Source: a phage. Taken from it: a stretch of DNA of 64,000 nucleotides. The stretch is from sequence record NC_104726.1; one strand, written 5' to 3'. The position numbers and the translations under genes are program-made. Under the pieces are notes generated by a model. It had not been told where the DNA came from and did not search any database. It was given only the letters and a program-made list of their open reading frames with translations. Of the stretch, positions 2 to 62,732 are shown piece by piece (position 1 is the stretch's first letter; each line of letters starts with the position of its first letter).

Positions 2-1984
2 TTATTTGGTGTTATTCTTTGTATCAATCAGCTCACGGTATTCAATCATAGCAGGGGTGTCCCAATATTTCAAGCCTACATGCTTCAAAAGTGGGTATTT
101 CTTTTCCAATCTTGCAATATAGGCCTTCCCGCATTTAACTCGGTTGGCGATTAAGATTTTGGCACGATGATTTAGCTCACTGTGCTTCCACGTGGTGTTA
201 CCTTCCCACTTGTGGAAATGTGGCCGATAATTTCCAAAATCTTGCATGGGAATAATTTTCCCTAATTGTCTATACAGGCTGTCATAAGAAGTCTCATTTG
301 CTGCACGGGTCAGTAAGAATTTCCAAGCATCCTCTTTCAACAGGTGCTCCACATTCTTCTCTGTAACATACTGGCAATCAGGATCAGTCCAAAGCAGACG
401 AGATTCAGATACCAGATACAGATCTTCACCTTCAGGAATCTGAAGTGCCGCACGTACACGGTCATAATCTTGCTGGTAGATGTTACTCATCTGCCCCAGC
501 CAACAACTTCCACGTTGGATATCACCCTCATAAGGGATGCAGTGTTTAATCTTCCGGAACTCTGCCTTAGTAATACGCTCACGGCGGAAGTAACCATCCT
601 TCTCAAGTTTTTTAACCCAATAGCCTGGCTCATAATGAGTTTTTGTTTCACCTTTCTTCGCAGGTCGGCGAGGGAGCTCTGATAACAATTTGATCGTATC
701 TGCAAAGAACGGGTGGTGTGCCGCCTCTTTAAACTCTTTCACCAGATCAGTGTTCCGGCAATAGAAAACGTTGCGTCCGGTGATCTCGCTTAAGTAGTTA
801 CACTTATTTCGGTTATATTTGCCGTCTCCGTCGTTAAATACTAAATAAACTCCCCGTAAGAATTCTACCTTTCCGTAACAAGCGTAACCTATGCGGCCTT
901 TATTTAAGCCTCCAGCGAAGATCTCACAGTCCCCCAAATTTCCTAGGCCTGTCTCTTCCCATCGTTCCCACATAAAATTCTTACCGAAGATGTGCCCGAA
1001 CACTCCACTGTTCTTCATCATCTCGCGTGCTTCTGAGGATGTTTTTGCTGTCTCCAATTCCGCAACAACTTCTGCCCCACGTAAACGGATACCCTCTTTG
1101 ACAAAAGCCTCCAGGCGATCCTGGAATCCACCGTCGTCATGGCCCTCTATGGTCCATTCGCGCCCAGGGTTAATATTGCAATCCCCAATAGGAATCTCTA
1201 CACAGATTGCAGGGTAGTCTGTCAATGTTTCCAGGAATTTAGATCGGTAAGGTTGGTGACCCATTACCACGCGACTCTCGTCAGAGCTGGTATAACCTTT
1301 CAGGATAGTCATTTTCCAACCATCTTTCTCGTAGCGATACTGCGCCTCAACCTTGTCACCTTCCAGCATCTTACTGGTCATAGGGTCGGTAACGGTAAAC
1401 GGAAACTTTGCATAGCGTAGGCATGACGCAATAGCAGTGCGATATTTCAGAACATGCTCTTTCTTAACATGGAACTGAACTTTTACCCCGTTGTGCTCTT
1501 CAGTCTTCCGCTCACGGATCTTGGTAACGTTTGGGATACCCTGATCCAAGAACAATAGATATGTGCTTTCAACACCGTTGTGCACACTAATCACATCGAA
1601 AGTGTCCACCATGCTGAACGGGGCCTTTGAACCTACACCTTTATTACCTACCAGAGCGTTGCTGTTGCGCTTGGTTGACTCCCCGAGGTTCATGAAAGTG
1701 TTGCGGACCATCTCTTCTGACATACCCAATCCAACGTCCTGCACAAAGAAGTATGGTTCAAGGTCTGTAGGGGAGTGAATGATGATCGGTACATCACCCC
1801 GTCCAGACTCAACATGGGAGTCCACAGCATTGAAGATTGGTTCACGGCAGCTTGCCAGCACCTTATCTTCGTAAATCCCTTTAATGATTAGCCCAAAAGT
1901 CTCTTTGTTCAGAGAAATTGAGCCCCTGGTGACCTCCATATTTCCGGTTAGTACTGCTTTAGTTTCATTACTGTTTACAATCAT
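2..1984 (-). CDS. GHKL (Bergerat-fold) ATPase domain protein, 660 aa; C-terminal ~450 aa uncharacterised
   Basis: ATG at 1982-1984 preceded by AAGGAG; N-terminal motifs QDVGLGMSEEM, GNKGVGSKAPFS and NGVKVQF resemble the ATP-lid boxes of Hsp90/MutL/GyrB-type ATPases. Confidence 0.45.
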   Translation of the reverse strand: MIVNSNETKAVLTGNMEVTRGSISLNKETFGLIIKGIYEDKVLASCREPIFNAVDSHVESGRGDVPIIIHSPTDLEPYFFVQDVGLGMSEEMVRNTFMNLGESTKRNSNALVGNKGVGSKAPFSMVDTFDVISVHNGVESTYLLFLDQGIPNVTKIRERKTEEHNGVKVQFHVKKEHVLKYRTAIASCLRYAKFPFTVTDPMTSKMLEGDKVEAQYRYEKDGWKMTILKGYTSSDESRVVMGHQPYRSKFLETLTDYPAICVEIPIGDCNINPGREWTIEGHDDGGFQDRLEAFVKEGIRLRGAEVVAELETAKTSSEAREMMKNSGVFGHIFGKNFMWERWEETGLGNLGDCEIFAGGLNKGRIGYACYGKVEFLRGVYLVFNDGDGKYNRNKCNYLSEITGRNVFYCRNTDLVKEFKEAAHHPFFADTIKLLSELPRRPAKKGETKTHYEPGYWVKKLEKDGYFRRERITKAEFRKIKHCIPYEGDIQRGSCWLGQMSNIYQQDYDRVRAALQIPEGEDLYLVSESRLLWTDPDCQYVTEKNVEHLLKEDAWKFLLTRAANETSYDSLYRQLGKIIPMQDFGNYRPHFHKWEGNTTWKHSELNHRAKILIANRVKCGKAYIARLEKKYPLLKHVGLKYWDTPAMIEYRELIDTKNNTK

Positions 1985-2481
1985 TTATTGCGCTCCTTGT
2001 AGTAGATATGACTCCCGAATTGAGCTGTCCTCTGCATCTTTTTTGCCCATTTCGGTCGTACTTTGGTTGTATGGTAGTGTGTTGCTCCACCTGTTATGTC
2101 CATAGCCATGTATGCAACATGGTTGTTATTATAGACCTTTAGAAGCATCTTTGCAAGACTTTTAGCGTGATCCCATGAATCTTTTTCTGTCACCTTAAAA
2201 GTTTTGCCGTGGTTTGTCCACGAAAACTGGTTAGGTTGGTAGACAATCTTTCTTATAGTGTCTGGGTATTTGGGGTGAGATTTCCTGTTTAGTGTGGCAA
2301 ACCCTGATGCCAGCATACCCATCGTGCCATCCCCTCTAGCCTCCCTGTAGATATTGCATGCCAGAATGTTTTCCTTAGTATCTGAGGGCTTGCAAGTATG
2401 ATATACTTTTTGTTTTGGTGCTGCAACAACAGGCAGCGATAAAAATGCGCTCAAAATAATAGCAAAGATCTTAATTTTCAC
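1981..2481 (-). CDS. secreted SleB/CwlJ-like cell-wall hydrolase (candidate endolysin)
   Basis: GTG start at 2479-2481 with GGAG upstream; N-terminal signal-like segment MKIKIFAIILSAFLSLPVVAAP; motifs NIYREARGDG, QPNQFSW, GGATHYH, FGSHIYY typical of the SleB-type hydrolase family. Confidence 0.6.
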   Translation of the reverse strand: MKIKIFAIILSAFLSLPVVAAPKQKVYHTCKPSDTKENILACNIYREARGDGTMGMLASGFATLNRKSHPKYPDTIRKIVYQPNQFSWTNHGKTFKVTEKDSWDHAKSLAKMLLKVYNNNHVAYMAMDITGGATHYHTTKVRPKWAKKMQRTAQFGSHIYYKERNK

Positions 2482-2920: not shown

Positions 2921-4105
2921 TTAAGCTTTAGCCAAAATGGCGCTAAACTCTTCACCAAACTCTTTTACAATCTTCATCAGGTTTGGGTATGCTTTGATCA
3001 GCTGAGCAACAATCTTGTCACGCCCTTTGCCGATAAGCAAGGCATTTCCTAAGGCATTAGGTTTCATCATCGCCATAAAGACTGAGAATACAAAATCTCG
3101 GTTCTCGTCCTTGAAGTTTTCCCAAAGGAAATCGAGGAAGTTTGCCACGCAGCTGACAAGATCTTCGTCTGAGATACTTGCATTTTCCATCATATTACGA
3201 ATAGCGATACAACCTTCAGATCCAAGAATCCACAAAATGTCTGGCTGCTTAGGACCTACGTATTCTTTGCAACCACCTGCCATAATCCGACCGATTTCAG
3301 GTAAATTGCGTTTCTTGGTGTGGTATGTCCAGATCTCTACCGCTGCAGTGTGACCAATAGCACCTTGCAGAAGAACACGGGCCATAGCGTCAGAAATAAT
3401 ACCGCTGTCAAAATCGTGCAAGATATCAGATGCAGCAACCCAAGATCGCGGTGTGGCAAAAGATGGACAATTAATCTCAGCCATGGCCTCATAATTATCG
3501 ATAGCTGATGGAACTCTTTTCAGATATCCAATTACAGAGGAGTGCACCCCATTAAGGAATGCGTAGTCCTCAATAAACACCTCTGCATTGCTTGTAACCT
3601 CTACAATGATAAAACGGTTAGCCAGAGGGGCTTCGAGCGCCGAAAGAACCGCACCATCTGTAGAACGGTTACCAGCAGCCACAAAAACAGAACCCTTAGG
3701 GAATGCATAGGTACCGCACTTGTGGTCAAGCATAATTTGCATTGCAACCTTTTGCAGGTAGTTATCTGCATGAGTGAGCTCATCCAGAAAGATAATTCCG
3801 CTCCAGTCAGGATCCGCAGGCCAAAATTCTGGAATTGCAAACACTGTACGTGTAGTTCCATCCGCCTCTACAGGGATAGGTAGCCCAGATAAGTCGGCAG
3901 GATCTTTATCTGACAGTCGCACGTCAACAAGGTTGTCATCTCGCTCACCGAACATATTATCAGCGATCTGCTTCATCACCTGGCTTTTACCCACACCCAT
4001 TGGTCCCAAAATTAGGACAGATCGGCTATGACGTTGGGCAAACTGAATAATAGCTGGCAACTCACGGACAGTGATTTGACCACTTTCGAATACGTTTCTT
4101 GACAT
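2921..4105 (-). CDS. MoxR-like AAA+ ATPase
   Basis: Walker A ILGPMGVGKSQ, Walker B IIFLDEL, sensor-like LEAPLANRFIIV; ATG 4103-4105 with GAGGA upstream. Confidence 0.65.
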   Translation of the reverse strand: MSRNVFESGQITVRELPAIIQFAQRHSRSVLILGPMGVGKSQVMKQIADNMFGERDDNLVDVRLSDKDPADLSGLPIPVEADGTTRTVFAIPEFWPADPDWSGIIFLDELTHADNYLQKVAMQIMLDHKCGTYAFPKGSVFVAAGNRSTDGAVLSALEAPLANRFIIVEVTSNAEVFIEDYAFLNGVHSSVIGYLKRVPSAIDNYEAMAEINCPSFATPRSWVAASDILHDFDSGIISDAMARVLLQGAIGHTAAVEIWTYHTKKRNLPEIGRIMAGGCKEYVGPKQPDILWILGSEGCIAIRNMMENASISDEDLVSCVANFLDFLWENFKDENRDFVFSVFMAMMKPNALGNALLIGKGRDKIVAQLIKAYPNLMKIVKEFGEEFSAILAKA

Positions 4106-5703: not shown

Positions 5704-6603
5704 TCAAACCCTCGCATAAATTAAACTTGTATCAGTATACTTCTTTAATGGGTAAATATCCTGTCCATAGATGCAATCATTAAACACCTCATCTACCCAA
5801 AGGCTACACTTATATCCCATCATTTCTAAAACACCCATCTCTTCTTCGGTAAACTTATCACCGCTCTTGCAAGATGTCAATACCTCATTCTGAACTCTTG
5901 CTACCTCGAAGCGGTTATTGGCAATATCGCTATTGGCGATCAAATACTCACCTAGAGGGTGTGCGGCATTAAAGATGCACAGTGGACGGCTGACGTAATA
6001 GTCTCCGGGTGTATAAAAATTGTTGAGGTCTTTCACTAGAACATTCTTATCAGTCACTTCATTTATAACATCATGCATATCGCACATCTTTATATGTTTG
6101 AGGATTCCATCCCCCATCACAAAATAAAAACTTGCTGAGACACTTTCGGCATAGATCTTACTAGATCCGTTGTAGTTGTATTTTACTCGGATGCTAACGG
6201 GGGTTTTTCCTGTCGCGTTAGCCATCATCCAAAGAAATGGCAGCTCATACTTCTCCTCTGAGGAAACAAAAGGTGAGGTAGCCAGAGATCGAAAACCTCC
6301 AGAGAAGTTGAAAGTTACAGAACCGCTCCGGCGGTATGATACCGCGTATTCTACTTTTATATCGACGTACCCATTGGAATAGGTGTGTCCTTCATTATCT
6401 AAATATGTCCACTTATCAGACCCAGATACCAATCTACGCTCAATAACCTTCATCACTACAGGAATTAGTGGGTTGGTACAAACCGCTTTTGAAGTAGCTT
6501 TATCATCTAAAGCCTCGTAAATTGCAGAAAGGATGTCCCCAGCTGAAAGATTGGTTGTTATGTCCTGTTTCCACCGCGTACTAAAACTGTTAAGATTTGC
6601 CAT
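5704..6603 (-). CDS. hypothetical protein (299 aa)
   Basis: ATG 6601-6603 with GGAG upstream; first gene of the leftward unit reading out of the divergent promoter region. Confidence 0.5.
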   Translation of the reverse strand: MANLNSFSTRWKQDITTNLSAGDILSAIYEALDDKATSKAVCTNPLIPVVMKVIERRLVSGSDKWTYLDNEGHTYSNGYVDIKVEYAVSYRRSGSVTFNFSGGFRSLATSPFVSSEEKYELPFLWMMANATGKTPVSIRVKYNYNGSSKIYAESVSASFYFVMGDGILKHIKMCDMHDVINEVTDKNVLVKDLNNFYTPGDYYVSRPLCIFNAAHPLGEYLIANSDIANNRFEVARVQNEVLTSCKSGDKFTEEEMGVLEMMGYKCSLWVDEVFNDCIYGQDIYPLKKYTDTSLIYARV

Positions 6604-6643
6604 AAGTAAGTGCTCCTATGTTAGTTTTCTTTCGAATGGGTGC

Positions 6644-6672
6644 ACTATATCGGAGATTTATAGTAAAGTCAA
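6644..6672 (-). promoter_or_regulatory. sigma70-like promoter (TTGACT-N17-TATAGT) for leftward genes
   Basis: Minus-strand -35 at 6667-6672 and -10 at 6644-6649 with 17-nt spacer, upstream of gene 5704-6603. Confidence 0.4.
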
Positions 6673-6688
6673 CACGTTTTTGATGTTG

Positions 6689-6717
6689 ACATCTATTGAA
6701 ACAATTGATACGATTTC
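6689..6717 (+). promoter_or_regulatory. sigma70-like promoter (TTGACA-N17-TACGAT) for rightward genes
   Basis: -35 TTGACA at 6689-6694, -10-like TACGAT at 6712-6717, upstream of gene 6746-7723; back-to-back with the leftward promoter. Confidence 0.35.
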
Positions 6718-6745
6718 TTCACTTACAGAGCACGAGAGACAACTC

Positions 6746-7723
6746 ATGAATCTTGAAAAATATTATACACCAGAAGAGTTAGAGCGCCTGCTCAAAAAAT
6801 ATAGACGCAAACAGAATAATGCACGGAAACGAGATATAGAGTTCAACCTGTCATGGGAAGAATACCTCCTATTTGGTAAAAAACTTTTAGGAGATGGAGT
6901 ATGCGACTATACCCTTATACCTTTTGACATGCACACAGATGAAAACGGGCTGGGAAATCCTTTCTACCCATCTTTGGAGCGTATAGATGATGAAGGTCCT
7001 TACGCAATTGACAATTGTTGTGTGGTAGGGTTGAGGTGCAATGCTCTGAAAGACTGTCTGGTAGATAAAAAGACTGCAATCCTGATTAAAGACAAAACTG
7101 ATCGAAAAATTGTCCAGCAGATGATGCTCCACCTGAGCGAAGAGCGTATGGAGAAATTGAAAGGTGATTATACTTTTGAAGATTTCATCTTGCAATACGG
7201 GACAGAAGAAGATAAACTAGCACTATTTGACGAAGAGGAAGAAGATATGTCACCAATGCAGGACTTTAAAAATTTCATGGCTGATCGTGCAGCCAACAAA
7301 CACATTTCAGACATCGTGAACGAGACTGTGACAGAAGAAGTTGAAGAACAGAACTCTGAAGAGGAAAAAGAGCCTCAGGAGGTCGAAGAGGGGATTGCAG
7401 AAGAGGTTCCTGCACTGCCTGATGATGTTGAGATTGCTAAGGCTTACACTTTCTATTGTCAAACGTTCTACGATGCAGGTATGAAAGTTGATCTGTCGTT
7501 CAGCCAATTTAAGAGTTCGTATATTCGCAAATGCTGTGCTTTAACTGGTGAACGTCTCGGAGCTGGACTTAAACCACTGTTGGTGACCGACTGGAATAAA
7601 GGTTTCACTAAAGGAAACTTTATGGTAGTATCTCCAATTATGGAGAAAGCTATGACAGATCTTATGAAGACCACCCGCATGACAATGACCGAGTTGGCAG
7701 GTATTTTCAAACACGTTAAATAA
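6746..7723 (+). CDS. hypothetical protein with two Cys-containing repeat modules and an acidic linker
   Basis: ATG at 6746; track start at 6533 overlaps the opposite gene and promoter region; repeats around CDYTLIPFD...DNCCVVGLRCNALKDC and CCALTGERL...WNKGFTKGNFMVV; poly-acidic stretches EEEEDMSP and EEVEEQNSEEEKEPQEVEE. Confidence 0.5.
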   Translation: MNLEKYYTPEELERLLKKYRRKQNNARKRDIEFNLSWEEYLLFGKKLLGDGVCDYTLIPFDMHTDENGLGNPFYPSLERIDDEGPYAIDNCCVVGLRCNALKDCLVDKKTAILIKDKTDRKIVQQMMLHLSEERMEKLKGDYTFEDFILQYGTEEDKLALFDEEEEDMSPMQDFKNFMADRAANKHISDIVNETVTEEVEEQNSEEEKEPQEVEEGIAEEVPALPDDVEIAKAYTFYCQTFYDAGMKVDLSFSQFKSSYIRKCCALTGERLGAGLKPLLVTDWNKGFTKGNFMVVSPIMEKAMTDLMKTTRMTMTELAGIFKHVK

Positions 7724-7727
7724 TGAC

Positions 7728-7744
7728 AGGGGCCAATGGCCCCT
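7728..7744 (+). terminator. hairpin AGGGGCC-AAT-GGCCCCT after gene 6746-7723
   Basis: 7-bp perfect stem 5 nt after the stop at 7721-7723, followed by TCTGGAGTTTT. Confidence 0.3.
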
Positions 7745-7756
7745 TCTGGAGTTTTA

Positions 7757-9217
7757 ATGGATAGCAGAAGTTCAGAAATCATTACCTCACAGAAAGATGA
7801 TGCCCTGAGAATGTTGCAGGCTGCACGTATGTATCTCCTTGAAAAGCTGCCGTTTTATGGCACACTACTGTCAGGGTTGCAGTTCGTAGAAAACCACACA
7901 TGGTGCTCCACCATGGCAACCGACCATAAACGCATCTATTACAGTCCTGAGTTCATTATGGGATTGGCTGATGAACGCAAGGCTATTCTTAAGGCTTCTC
8001 TAACTGACGAGCAGTTTGAGATGGCTGAAGTTTTCTATTCCCCAAAATCTGTGAAAGAGGTGGCCTTCCTTCTGTCACATGAGGTGGGGCATATTATCTG
8101 TGATCACCTAGTCCGTGGTAAAAGCTTTGAGCCGGAACTGTTCAATATTGCTTGTGATCACGTTATCAACACAGGCCTTGTGGTTGACTTTAGCAAACCT
8201 CCTTGTGTTTTCTTCCCGAAGGGGAAAAGCACTACGTTCCTGAAAGGTAAGCCTTTTGGCTTCTTAGCCAGCTGCTACTGCGACATGAAGTTTCATGGAT
8301 GGATTGCTGAGAACGTTTATGCAGTTCTTGATAAGCAAAGAGATCAGAATAACGGTAAAAGTAAGAACGGTAAAGGTGAGAACTCTCAAAGTGATAAGCG
8401 ACAAACCGATGATCACATGAGTGGGAACGGTGGCACCAGTGATAATCTTGGAAAGGCTATGGGGTATGATCAGCCACAACCTGTAATCAGCCAATCTGAT
8501 AAAGATCAGGCCATGCAGGACTCTGGTGATATGCTGGAGGCAGCAATGCAAGCGTCCGGAGGCCGTTGCCCTGAGGCGGTGCGTGAGTTTGTCAAGAACA
8601 GAGGTAAACCTGTAATCAACTATATAGACATCATTAAGCAACGCATGTTGTCTAAAAGAAAGGCCGAACTGACCTACAGAAAACCTGGTCGCCGATCTGG
8701 GTCTTTGACCAGCACAATGCGAAAAGTTGGGGCTATAAACAAGAACCAGCACGTTATTGTTCCTGGTCGTAATCCGGAAAACACTATAGATATTGTGGTG
8801 GCTTTAGACGTTTCTGGCTCGATCTCTCAAAGAACTTTAAAGAAAATGTTCAATGAAATCACCGGATTGTGCAATCTGTATAAAGAGTTTAAGGTTACAA
8901 TGTTCTGTTGGTCAACTGAGGTTGGAGAGGTTAAAGTATACACTCGCGGCAACATAGACGAGATGATCAACTATGAGGTACACTCAACATGGGGCACAAC
9001 AGCTGCTTGCGTGTTCGAGTATCTGGATGCCAACATACCTAATGCAAAAGATGTCATCGTCCTGACCGACCTATACTTTGAGCATAACTTTGAACAAAAG
9101 GCTGTTGACAACAAGTGGAAAAAGTACGATACTTTATGGGTTCTCACCGAAGGGTATAATAAAAATTATATCCCTAGCTTTGGGAAAACTGTGGAATTAA
9201 TCGAGTACGCTAAGTAA
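7757..9217 (+). CDS. VWA-domain protein with N-terminal HExxH metallopeptidase-like domain
   Basis: HEVGHIICDH...NIACDHVIN zinc-binding-like motif; MIDAS-type VVALDVSGSIS; ATG 7757 preferred over track start 7736, which lies in the hairpin loop. Confidence 0.6.
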   Translation: MDSRSSEIITSQKDDALRMLQAARMYLLEKLPFYGTLLSGLQFVENHTWCSTMATDHKRIYYSPEFIMGLADERKAILKASLTDEQFEMAEVFYSPKSVKEVAFLLSHEVGHIICDHLVRGKSFEPELFNIACDHVINTGLVVDFSKPPCVFFPKGKSTTFLKGKPFGFLASCYCDMKFHGWIAENVYAVLDKQRDQNNGKSKNGKGENSQSDKRQTDDHMSGNGGTSDNLGKAMGYDQPQPVISQSDKDQAMQDSGDMLEAAMQASGGRCPEAVREFVKNRGKPVINYIDIIKQRMLSKRKAELTYRKPGRRSGSLTSTMRKVGAINKNQHVIVPGRNPENTIDIVVALDVSGSISQRTLKKMFNEITGLCNLYKEFKVTMFCWSTEVGEVKVYTRGNIDEMINYEVHSTWGTTAACVFEYLDANIPNAKDVIVLTDLYFEHNFEQKAVDNKWKKYDTLWVLTEGYNKNYIPSFGKTVELIEYAK

Positions 9218-61919: not shown

Positions 61920-61996
61920 TGGTCTCCACGGAGTGATTCGAACACTCGACCTCCTGATCCCAAATCAGGCGCTCTACCAAGCTGAGCTACGCGGAG
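61920..61996 (-). tRNA. tRNA-Pro (anticodon TGG)
   Basis: Manual cloverleaf: acceptor CTCCGCG/CGTGGAG, anticodon loop TTTGGGA, T-loop TTCGAAT, encoded CCA. Confidence 0.75.
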
Positions 61997-62007
61997 TATT
62001 TACTATT

Positions 62008-62082
62008 TGGTGGCCCTGGGTGGAATTGAACCACCGTCTGGCGATTATGAGTCGCTTGCTTGAACCTTCCAGCTACAGGGCC
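62008..62082 (-). tRNA. tRNA-Met or Ile2 (anticodon CAT)
   Basis: Acceptor GGCCCTG/CAGGGCC, anticodon loop CTCATAA, T-arm GGTGG-TTCAATT-CCACC, CCA. Confidence 0.7.
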
Positions 62083-62083
62083 T

Positions 62084-62159
62084 TGGTGCTGATGGCAGGA
62101 CTTTAACCTACAACCTATTGATTACAAATCAATTGCACTACCGATTTTGCTACATCAGC
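62084..62159 (-). tRNA. tRNA-Thr (anticodon TGT), non-canonical T-loop
   Basis: Acceptor GCTGATG/CATCAGC, anticodon loop TTTGTAA, T-loop TTAAAGT (A where C56 is expected), CCA. Confidence 0.6.
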
Positions 62160-62164
62160 AAAAA

Positions 62165-62263
62165 GGTGCTAGGTGATGGAATCGAACCACCTATGTATTC
62201 AACGACTACCTCGTCTATTTTCAGGATTAAAAATCCTCGCCCTTGCCAAAGGGCTTACCTAGC
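62165..62263 (-). tRNA. atypical 99-nt tRNA-like gene (anticodon ambiguous)
   Basis: Perfect 7-bp acceptor GCTAGGT/ACCTAGC, D-stem GCCC/GGGC, T-arm GGTGG-TTCGATT-CCATC, but 47 nt between D and T arms and no encoded CCA. Confidence 0.4.
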
Positions 62264-62361
62264 TCAGTATGTTGACCATGTTGCTAGTCGGCGATGACGA
62301 CTGTAACATTTGATAATCCGGTTCTGCTTCCGACTTTCGCTTAATTACAAGGTCAACAATG

Positions 62362-62452
62362 TGGCGGAGAGTAATGGAATCGAACCATCATCGAGTCATC
62401 CTCAACGGGACGGTTTTCAAGACCGCTTGAGCACCATTGCTCCCTACCCTCC
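62362..62452 (-). tRNA. tRNA-Ser (anticodon TGA), long variable arm
   Basis: Acceptor GGAGGGT/ACTCTCC, anticodon loop CTTGAAA, T-loop TTCGATT, CCA. Confidence 0.7.
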
Positions 62453-62566
62453 TTTATAAATAATACTGATAATGACACTGATTTTCGAGCAGTTAGTGAC
62501 TAGTATAAACGACGATAAATATCAATGCCATTATCTGTATTATTTATGCATCTAAAAATATAAATT

Positions 62567-62653
62567 TGGTGGGGAGTGGTGGAGTCGAACCACCCGAGTC
62601 GCAATGACAATAGATTTACAGTCTACACCGCTACCTCTACGGGATAACTCCCC
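62567..62653 (-). tRNA. tRNA-Tyr (anticodon GTA), long variable arm
   Basis: Acceptor GGGGAGT/ACTCCCC, anticodon loop CTGTAAA, T-loop TTCGACT, CCA. Confidence 0.75.
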
Positions 62654-62657
62654 AATT

Positions 62658-62732
62658 TGGCACCCCGTACTGGACTCGAACCAGTGTCAACGGCTTAGAA
62701 GGCCGCTGCTTTATCCACTAAGCTAACAGGGC
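62658..62732 (-). tRNA. tRNA-Arg (anticodon TCT)
   Basis: Acceptor GCCCTGT/ACGGGGT (two G-U pairs), anticodon loop CTTCTAA, T-loop TTCGAGT, CCA. Confidence 0.7.

Follow-up and report, generated by a model that had tools for sequence, protein, structure and literature searches.

An rV5-like coliphage rIIA gene with a predicted two-domain GHKL ATPase module and a probable role in Rex counter-defence

We analysed a 64,000-nucleotide (nt) stretch of phage DNA (sequence record NC_104726.1; this whole stretch is called the window here), concentrating on the long open reading frame (ORF) on the minus strand at its left edge. We find that this ORF is very probably rIIA, the first gene of the rIIA–rIIB pair of a Vequintavirus (rV5-like) myophage of E. 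coli, and that its product would act with RIIB to counter Rex exclusion by the mechanism proposed below. Work with rII mutants reportedly began with Benzer in the 1950s; the gene is already known and annotated, and the finding is in that sense an ordinary one. The initial annotation of the window, which was made from the sequence without database searches, had correctly reported a 660-amino acid (aa) ORF, although it left the strand unstated; the frame is complete, and the plus-strand translation across the same interval has stops throughout. That annotation had also called the protein uncharacterised, which does not hold. Indeed, the protein has the same sequence (100% identity) as the rIIA annotated in Escherichia phages rV5_ev158 and vb_EcoM_bov10K2/11CS3/22_2/25_3, based on a tblastn search of 50,697 phage records, and residues 1–657 match positions 1–723 of the 725 in the PHROG 612 profile, ‘RIIA lysis inhibitor’ (E = 8.1e-124). 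The PHROG 612 profile probably holds rV5-type sequences, and thus this match is no independent proof of homology to T4 rIIA in the C-terminal part.

The gene belongs to a tight cluster of relatives: 119 records in the tblastn search are at least 95% identical to the protein, while all remaining records fall below 60%. The rIIA of phage EdH4 (MK327930.1, 31398-33380; QBO61345.1) is 97.9% identical, differing at 14 of the 660 positions, none of them in the invariant motifs described below. Similarly, the first 8 kilobases (kb) of the window are 97.5–98.4% identical in DNA sequence to Vequintavirus genomes, including those of MaxTheCat, A6-1 and DrSchubert. From the protein and DNA identities together, we assign the window to an rV5-like coliphage (Vequintavirinae). 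The rIIA proteins of the Vequintavirus phages rV5, EdH4 and bov10K2 (QOC57218.1) share 97.9–100% aa identity with the window protein as well as its 660-aa length, and their loci have the same neighbours, with a cell-wall hydrolase gene upstream and rIIB downstream; apart from the substitutions relative to EdH4, there is no material difference. Sixteen records titled ‘Campylobacter phage’ also match the window over its first 8 kb; among these, MG065635, MG065646, MG065647, MG065654, MG065655 and MG065666 have ∼97.5% DNA identity, like the rV5-like phages of E. coli. These records likely carry a wrong host label or reflect coliphage contamination of the preparations.

The proposed function comes from published work on orthologues. 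RexAB, the exclusion system of phage lambda, responds to infection with membrane depolarisation and growth arrest, and is opposed by RIIA and RIIB. CRISPRi-ART knock-down of either RIIA or RIIB in phages T4, MM02, EdH4, SUSP1 and N4 lowered the plating efficiency only on E. coli expressing RexAB, and had no effect on E. coli without Rex (PMC11879866). The same conditional essentiality of the rII genes was obtained by transposon sequencing in T4 (10.1101/2025.11.20.689424), and RIIB by itself triggers a bacterial gasdermin defence system (PMC10312443). EdH4 is itself a Vequintavirus, and its rIIA is the near-identical orthologue described above; by analogy with this published phenotype, the rIIA of the window, together with rIIB, is a putative counter-defence gene directed against lambda RexAB. 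Thus, the role in host interaction or conflict put forward in the initial annotation was right in outcome, but it had been drawn from the neighbouring genes for a secreted hydrolase and a MoxR protein. These neighbours are real and are conserved genus-wide; the informative neighbour is rIIB.

Most database records label the protein ‘RIIA lysis inhibitor’, which points to a different reading, that RIIA is a true regulator of lysis timing and works with the adjacent secreted SleB/CwlJ-type hydrolase to set the time of burst. The overlap of the rIIA start with the stop of the signal-peptide-bearing hydrolase gene and the rapid lysis of E. coli B by T4 rII mutants (10.1101/2025.10.21.683753) are both in keeping with such a role. 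However, a review of lysis inhibition notes that rIIA and rIIB appear to overcome it independently of the RI/RIII antiholin pathway (PMC6832632), and knock-down of rIIA had no effect on Rex-free hosts (PMC11879866). Moreover, no membrane-spanning segment is predicted in rIIA (hydropathy over 19 residues peaks at 0.93), the protein has no similarity to holins or antiholins in Pfam or PHROG, and no lysis gene adjoins rIIA in T4. We therefore consider a role in lysis timing to be quite unlikely and Rex counter-defence to be the better account of the gene. Given the lack of a membrane-spanning segment, any association of RIIA with the membrane would be peripheral or through a partner.

The partner gene, rIIB, is annotated 10 nt past the rIIA stop, in the same orientation, in both MT884008.2 and EdH4; an alignment of 204 residues between rV5-type rIIB and its T4 counterpart shows 37% identity (E = 4e-39). 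A tblastn search for rIIB within the window found none; only 1 nt separates the rIIA stop from the window edge, and the rIIB ribosome-binding site spans this left edge. In the T4 reference record, too, the linear sequence is opened between the two genes, with rIIA at the start and rIIB at the end. The linearisation point or window edge is probably the reason that rIIA was met without its diagnostic partner in the initial annotation.

The N-terminal part of the protein has the features of a GHKL (Bergerat-fold) ATPase domain. The initial annotation had assigned this domain from DVGLGM, GVGSKA and GVKVQF, all of which are present, with GVGSKA (residues 116–121) lying within motif III; it had not listed the N box, EPIFNAVD. 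Together these supply motifs I (ExxxNxxD), II (DxGxG), III (the GxxGxG lid) and IV of the GHKL superfamily (Table 1), along with a profile match and a fold match. The profile match is to Pfam HATPase_c_3 at residues 50–147, with a score of 34.9 bits against a cut-off of 25 (E = 1.8e-8). Invariance was scored in an alignment of 23 rIIA homologues that includes T4 rIIA, and the motif residues that are invariant in this alignment are given in Table 1. On this basis the ATP-binding site is predicted to be intact, and, going by the GHKL literature, E48 would serve as general base and N52 as Mg2+ ligand. In the AlphaFold2 model, residues 101–116 have a low predicted local distance difference test score (pLDDT), which fits a mobile ATP lid. 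A PDB sequence search with the single protein gave only noise (E ≥ 0.1), while the rIIA family profile found only the N-domains of Hsp90/TRAP1 (E about 4e-7). A second family labelled as a lysis inhibitor, PHROG 609 (‘RIIB lysis inhibitor’, profile length 1055), also matches rIIA residues 26–183 (E = 1e-23). The rV5-type rIIB has no GHKL match in Pfam or NCBIfam; the PHROG 609 label is probably misleading, the family holding rIIA-like or fused proteins.

Behind the GHKL domain, the predicted structure places a second, transducer-like domain, as in the GHL-type module, in which a GHKL domain is joined to a transducer (S5-like) domain. The AlphaFold2 model of the whole protein has a mean pLDDT of 82.2, and T4 rIIA was left out of the alignment used for it. 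The best structural matches include ParE, the T6 topoisomerase II ATPase, topoisomerase VI-B, MutL and MORC2. Residues about 191–285 and the GHKL domain are thus predicted to form a two-domain ATPase module of the Gyrase/Hsp90/MutL/MORC branch. GHL ATPases have a conserved basic residue in the second domain that touches the gamma-phosphate, with MutL K307, GyrB K337 and Hsp90 R380 as examples. Three residues of the second domain, Y246, R275 and E276, are invariant in the 23-sequence alignment, and we infer that the loop containing R275 and E276 is a candidate nucleotide (gamma-phosphate) sensor. The initial annotation had seen no topoisomerase, MutL, kinase or transducer motifs, and Pfam indeed returns no Toprim, MutL_C or HisKA; at the level of fold, however, the absence of a transducer does not stand, because residues about 191–285 form a transducer-like domain in the model.

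The resemblance to known two-domain ATPases does not place the protein in any of their families. Identity to Hsp90/TRAP1, the MutL N-terminal domain, MORC2/3, the 43-kDa fragment of ParE/GyrB and topoisomerase VI-B is only 8–15%, and rIIA lacks the partners that define these families: Toprim, the C-terminal endonuclease/dimerisation domain of MutL, the middle and C-terminal domains of Hsp90, and a CW zinc finger or coiled coil. Membership in four families was rejected since the defining partner domains are absent. For a type II topoisomerase ATPase subunit (GyrB/ParE/topoisomerase VI-B), there is no Toprim or partner DNA-cleavage subunit; for MutL, there is no MutL_C in Pfam and no fold match to the C-terminal dimerisation/endonuclease domain; for Hsp90, the middle and C-terminal domains are missing and the NCBIfam HSP90 model gives 18 bits, where its cut-off is 455; and for a histidine kinase, neither a DHp/HisKA domain with a phospho-acceptor histidine nor a kinase-type catalytic domain is found. 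The remote-homology result that the initial annotation had named as counting against it was a standard topoisomerase or chaperone whose partner domains are intact; Pfam found no Toprim, MutL_C, HisKA or Hsp90. Overall, its observation was partly confirmed and its interpretation partly supported. Searches with the PADLOC defence-system models gave nothing meaningful (E ≥ 0.005, 12.7 bits), and thus rIIA is not a recognisable component of a defence system.

Since the structural matches include topoisomerases, MutL and MORC2, we weighed the reading that RIIA is a DNA-directed GHKL enzyme, a topoisomerase-, MutL- or MORC-like clamp working in phage replication or DNA compaction, with an indirect Rex phenotype. 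The helicase, methylase and primase/helicase genes that lie beyond rIIB in MT884008.2, the topoisomerase genes 60 and 39 that adjoin rIIA in T4, the ‘putative DNA-binding rIIA protein’ of some records and the net charge of +10 in the C-terminal region would all suit such an enzyme. However, Pfam finds no Toprim, MutL_C or DNA-binding domain, and NCBIfam finds no topoisomerase or MutL family, only three weak GHKL-type matches (sacsin, HSP90 and BbrUII) that are all far under their cut-offs (and nothing for rIIB). Furthermore, the GHKL domain nearest by sequence is that of Hsp90/TRAP1 rather than of a topoisomerase, and the gene is dispensable without Rex (PMC11879866); a DNA-directed enzyme is thus very unlikely. 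That RIIA is a very divergent phage Hsp90-type chaperone, remodelling a host or prophage protein, we regard as extremely unlikely. Rex counter-defence by a GHKL ATPase of its own family remains the preferred reading.

To place the window protein relative to the prototype RIIA, we compared it with that of T4 (NP_049616.1, 725 aa). Both have an N-terminal GHKL domain followed by a second domain, the same invariant motifs, including the SRE/GREW loop, and an rIIB partner; the window protein is 65 aa shorter, its C-terminal 360 residues cannot be aligned with T4 by sequence or profile, and the neighbours of T4 rIIA differ, being rIIA.1 and the two topoisomerase genes. BLASTP against T4 rIIA aligned residues 1–190 at 28% identity (E = 3e-21) and nothing further along, while hhalign with a profile of 22 homologues aligned residues 1–303 to residues 1–307 of T4 (probability 99.94%, E = 2.7e-37), and thus the homologous core extends beyond the GHKL domain. 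Identity to T4-type and other distant homologues is 28–38% in the GHKL domain but 6–20% past residue 286, and these latter values are alignment noise.

The initial annotation had found the C-terminal part of the protein unrecognisable. At the level of sequence families this stands: no significant Pfam family matches the last 460 residues (DUF7003, with 17.2 bits against a cut-off of 27, is noise), and a phmmer search of residues about 286–660 against 1.84 billion representative proteins gave only 10 matches with E ≤ 1e-3, all of them either fragments or proteins of rIIA length that align at about 286–660. By predicted structure, however, the region is recognised. Foldseek comparison of the C-terminal model with predicted viral structures gave 16 matches with E ≤ 1e-3, mostly named RIIA and from T4-like as well as other phages, including those of Aeromonas 44RR2.8t (4e-8), KVP40 (8e-7), Klebsiella Marfa, Pectobacterium Arno18, Aeromonas phiAS5 and Streptomyces Bmoc; the E values to T4-like RIIA proteins range from 4e-8 to 4e-4. 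The models therefore suggest that the C-terminal region is not a foreign add-on, but has a fold akin to that of other RIIA proteins with a very divergent sequence. P631 and Y649, close to the C-terminus, are shared by ≥90% of the 23 sequences in the alignment. An N-terminal GHKL domain together with a C-terminal domain that varies greatly has previously been reported for orthologues of rIIA (PMC7824862).

These features fit a mechanism in which RIIA, co-produced with RIIB, would bind and hydrolyse ATP; as with other GHKL enzymes that have two domains, it would probably act as a dimeric clamp gated by ATP. Nucleotide sensing would fall to the R275/E276 loop in the second domain, and the divergent C-terminal region would make contact with RIIB and/or a host or prophage target, with the outcome that abortive infection of the Rex type, with its membrane depolarisation and growth arrest, would not be triggered or would be neutralised. 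A broader proposal is that RIIA proteins in all phage groups are built alike over their full length, as a two-domain ATP-gated clamp of the Hsp90/MORC type with a fast-evolving but structurally conserved C-terminal module, in which R275/E276 is the sensor and ATP-driven closure with RIIB is the long-sought biochemical activity that blocks Rex-type abortive infection. The evidence mildly favours this proposal, which we hold only tentatively, as a possibility. It applies beyond this window, and may already be the view of specialists who have modelled T4 RIIA with AlphaFold.

Several points weigh against the assignment of this function and mechanism. First, very few wild-type phages were affected by RexAB in the BASEL study, which suggested that its primary function may be other than defence (PMC8594841); the natural target of the rII genes in this phage may thus be something other than RexAB. 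Second, rIIB lies outside the window, and thus the pairing of rIIA with rIIB is shown only in near-identical genomes. Third, the literature searched gives no biochemical activity for any rIIA, and reports no structure, ATPase assay or molecular target for RIIA; ATP hydrolysis, dimerisation and contact between RIIA and RIIB are steps that we infer. Fourth, the AlphaFold models rest on shallow alignments, of 22 and 17 sequences, with predicted template modelling (pTM) scores of 0.55 and 0.52. Finally, the link of the C-terminal region to T4-type rIIA is a local similarity found by Foldseek, with template modelling scores (TM-scores) of 0.20–0.36 and 10–15% identity, whereas sequence and profile methods detect nothing in T4 rIIA past residue about 303; the low TM-scores indicate that the similarity is local and that the domains are differently arranged in the models.

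The predicted structure supplies residues and boundaries for mutagenesis, namely the GHKL and transducer-like module with R275/E276, and a C-terminal region whose fold, but not its sequence, is conserved. This opportunity is equal for T4 and many other phages, so the locus is not special in this respect, and its residual value is in structural hypotheses for the whole RIIA family.

Table 1. Position of rIIA, its domains and motifs, and its neighbouring genes in the window
Feature	Position	Strand	Remarks
rIIA coding sequence	2..1984	minus	660 aa; ATG 1984-1982, stop 4-2; from the ORF list
GHKL (Bergerat-fold) ATPase domain	1415..1936	minus	residues about 17-190
Motif I (N box), EPIFNAVD	1820..1843	minus	residues 48-55; E48, N52 and D55 invariant in 23 homologues
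Motif II (G1 box), DVGLGM	1721..1738	minus	residues 83-88; D83, G85 and G87 invariant
Motif III (G2 box, ATP lid), GNKGVGSKA	1622..1648	minus	residues 113-121; G113, G116, G118, S119 and K120 invariant
Motif IV region, GVKVQF	1472..1489	minus	residues 166-171; G166 invariant
Transducer-like second domain (predicted)	1130..1414	minus	residues about 191-285; conserved in T4 rIIA
PGREW motif	1154..1168	minus	residues 273-277; R275 and E276 invariant across 23 homologues, T4 included
rIIA C-terminal region	5..1129	minus	residues 286-660; helical linker, alpha/beta domain, beta-rich domain and helical bundle; diverges between phage groups
AAGGAG, Shine-Dalgarno-like	1993..1998	minus	8 nt 5' of the rIIA ATG; direct sequence reading
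SleB/CwlJ-type cell-wall hydrolase	1981..2481	minus	166 aa; Pfam Hydrolase_2, E = 2e-19; signal-peptide-like N-terminus
MoxR-like AAA+ ATPase	2921..4105	minus	from the ORF list and Pfam
DUF2201 metallopeptidase/VWA protein	7736..9217	plus	493 aa; Pfam DUF2201_N (putative metallopeptidase), E = 4e-28, and VWA-like DUF2201

The rIIA ATG shares bases with the TGA stop of the upstream hydrolase gene, as ATGA, and this overlap suggests that translation of the hydrolase and rIIA is coupled. Just upstream of the hydrolase gene is a G+C-rich terminator-like hairpin (2517-2502), and a terminator is annotated at the matching intergenic position in EdH4. Based on the hairpin, the EdH4 terminator and the ATGA overlap, the hydrolase, rIIA and rIIB may form one transcription unit. 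The rIIA gene contains a lone A6 homopolymer (window 608-613, minus strand; gene positions 1372-1377, from codon 458); in T4 rIIA, a six-A run was recently described as a hypermutable contingency locus (10.1101/2025.10.21.683753).

The DUF2201 protein is, like the hydrolase and the MoxR-like ATPase, a conserved neighbour genus-wide, and from their domain matches the DUF2201 protein and the MoxR-like ATPase are predicted to be a MoxR/VWA-type pair. PHROG 1314, to which the DUF2201 protein belongs, is labelled ‘HNH endonuclease’, a label that is probably misleading. Between the two genes there is a strand switch at about 6530-6720, with back-to-back promoter-like sites at 6672-6644 (minus) and 6686-6714 (plus) and a terminator-like hairpin at 6690-6668; these signals fit divergent transcription units. 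The GC skew changes sign near 6 kb and again near 14 kb. A 396-aa ORF (6533-7723) overlaps a region that is called ‘anti-termination’ or ‘anti-sigma factor’ in relatives.

Further along the window, ARAGORN identified a tRNA cluster at 61920-62732 with six ordinary tRNAs (Pro, Met, Thr, Ser, Tyr and Arg). The cluster also holds a 99-nt tRNA-like gene (62165-62263, minus strand), to which ARAGORN assigned the four-base anticodon atcc; possible identities for it are a pseudo-tRNA, a tRNA with an intron and a frameshift-suppressor-like tRNA. EdH4 carries this element too, annotated as ‘tRNA-OTHER’.
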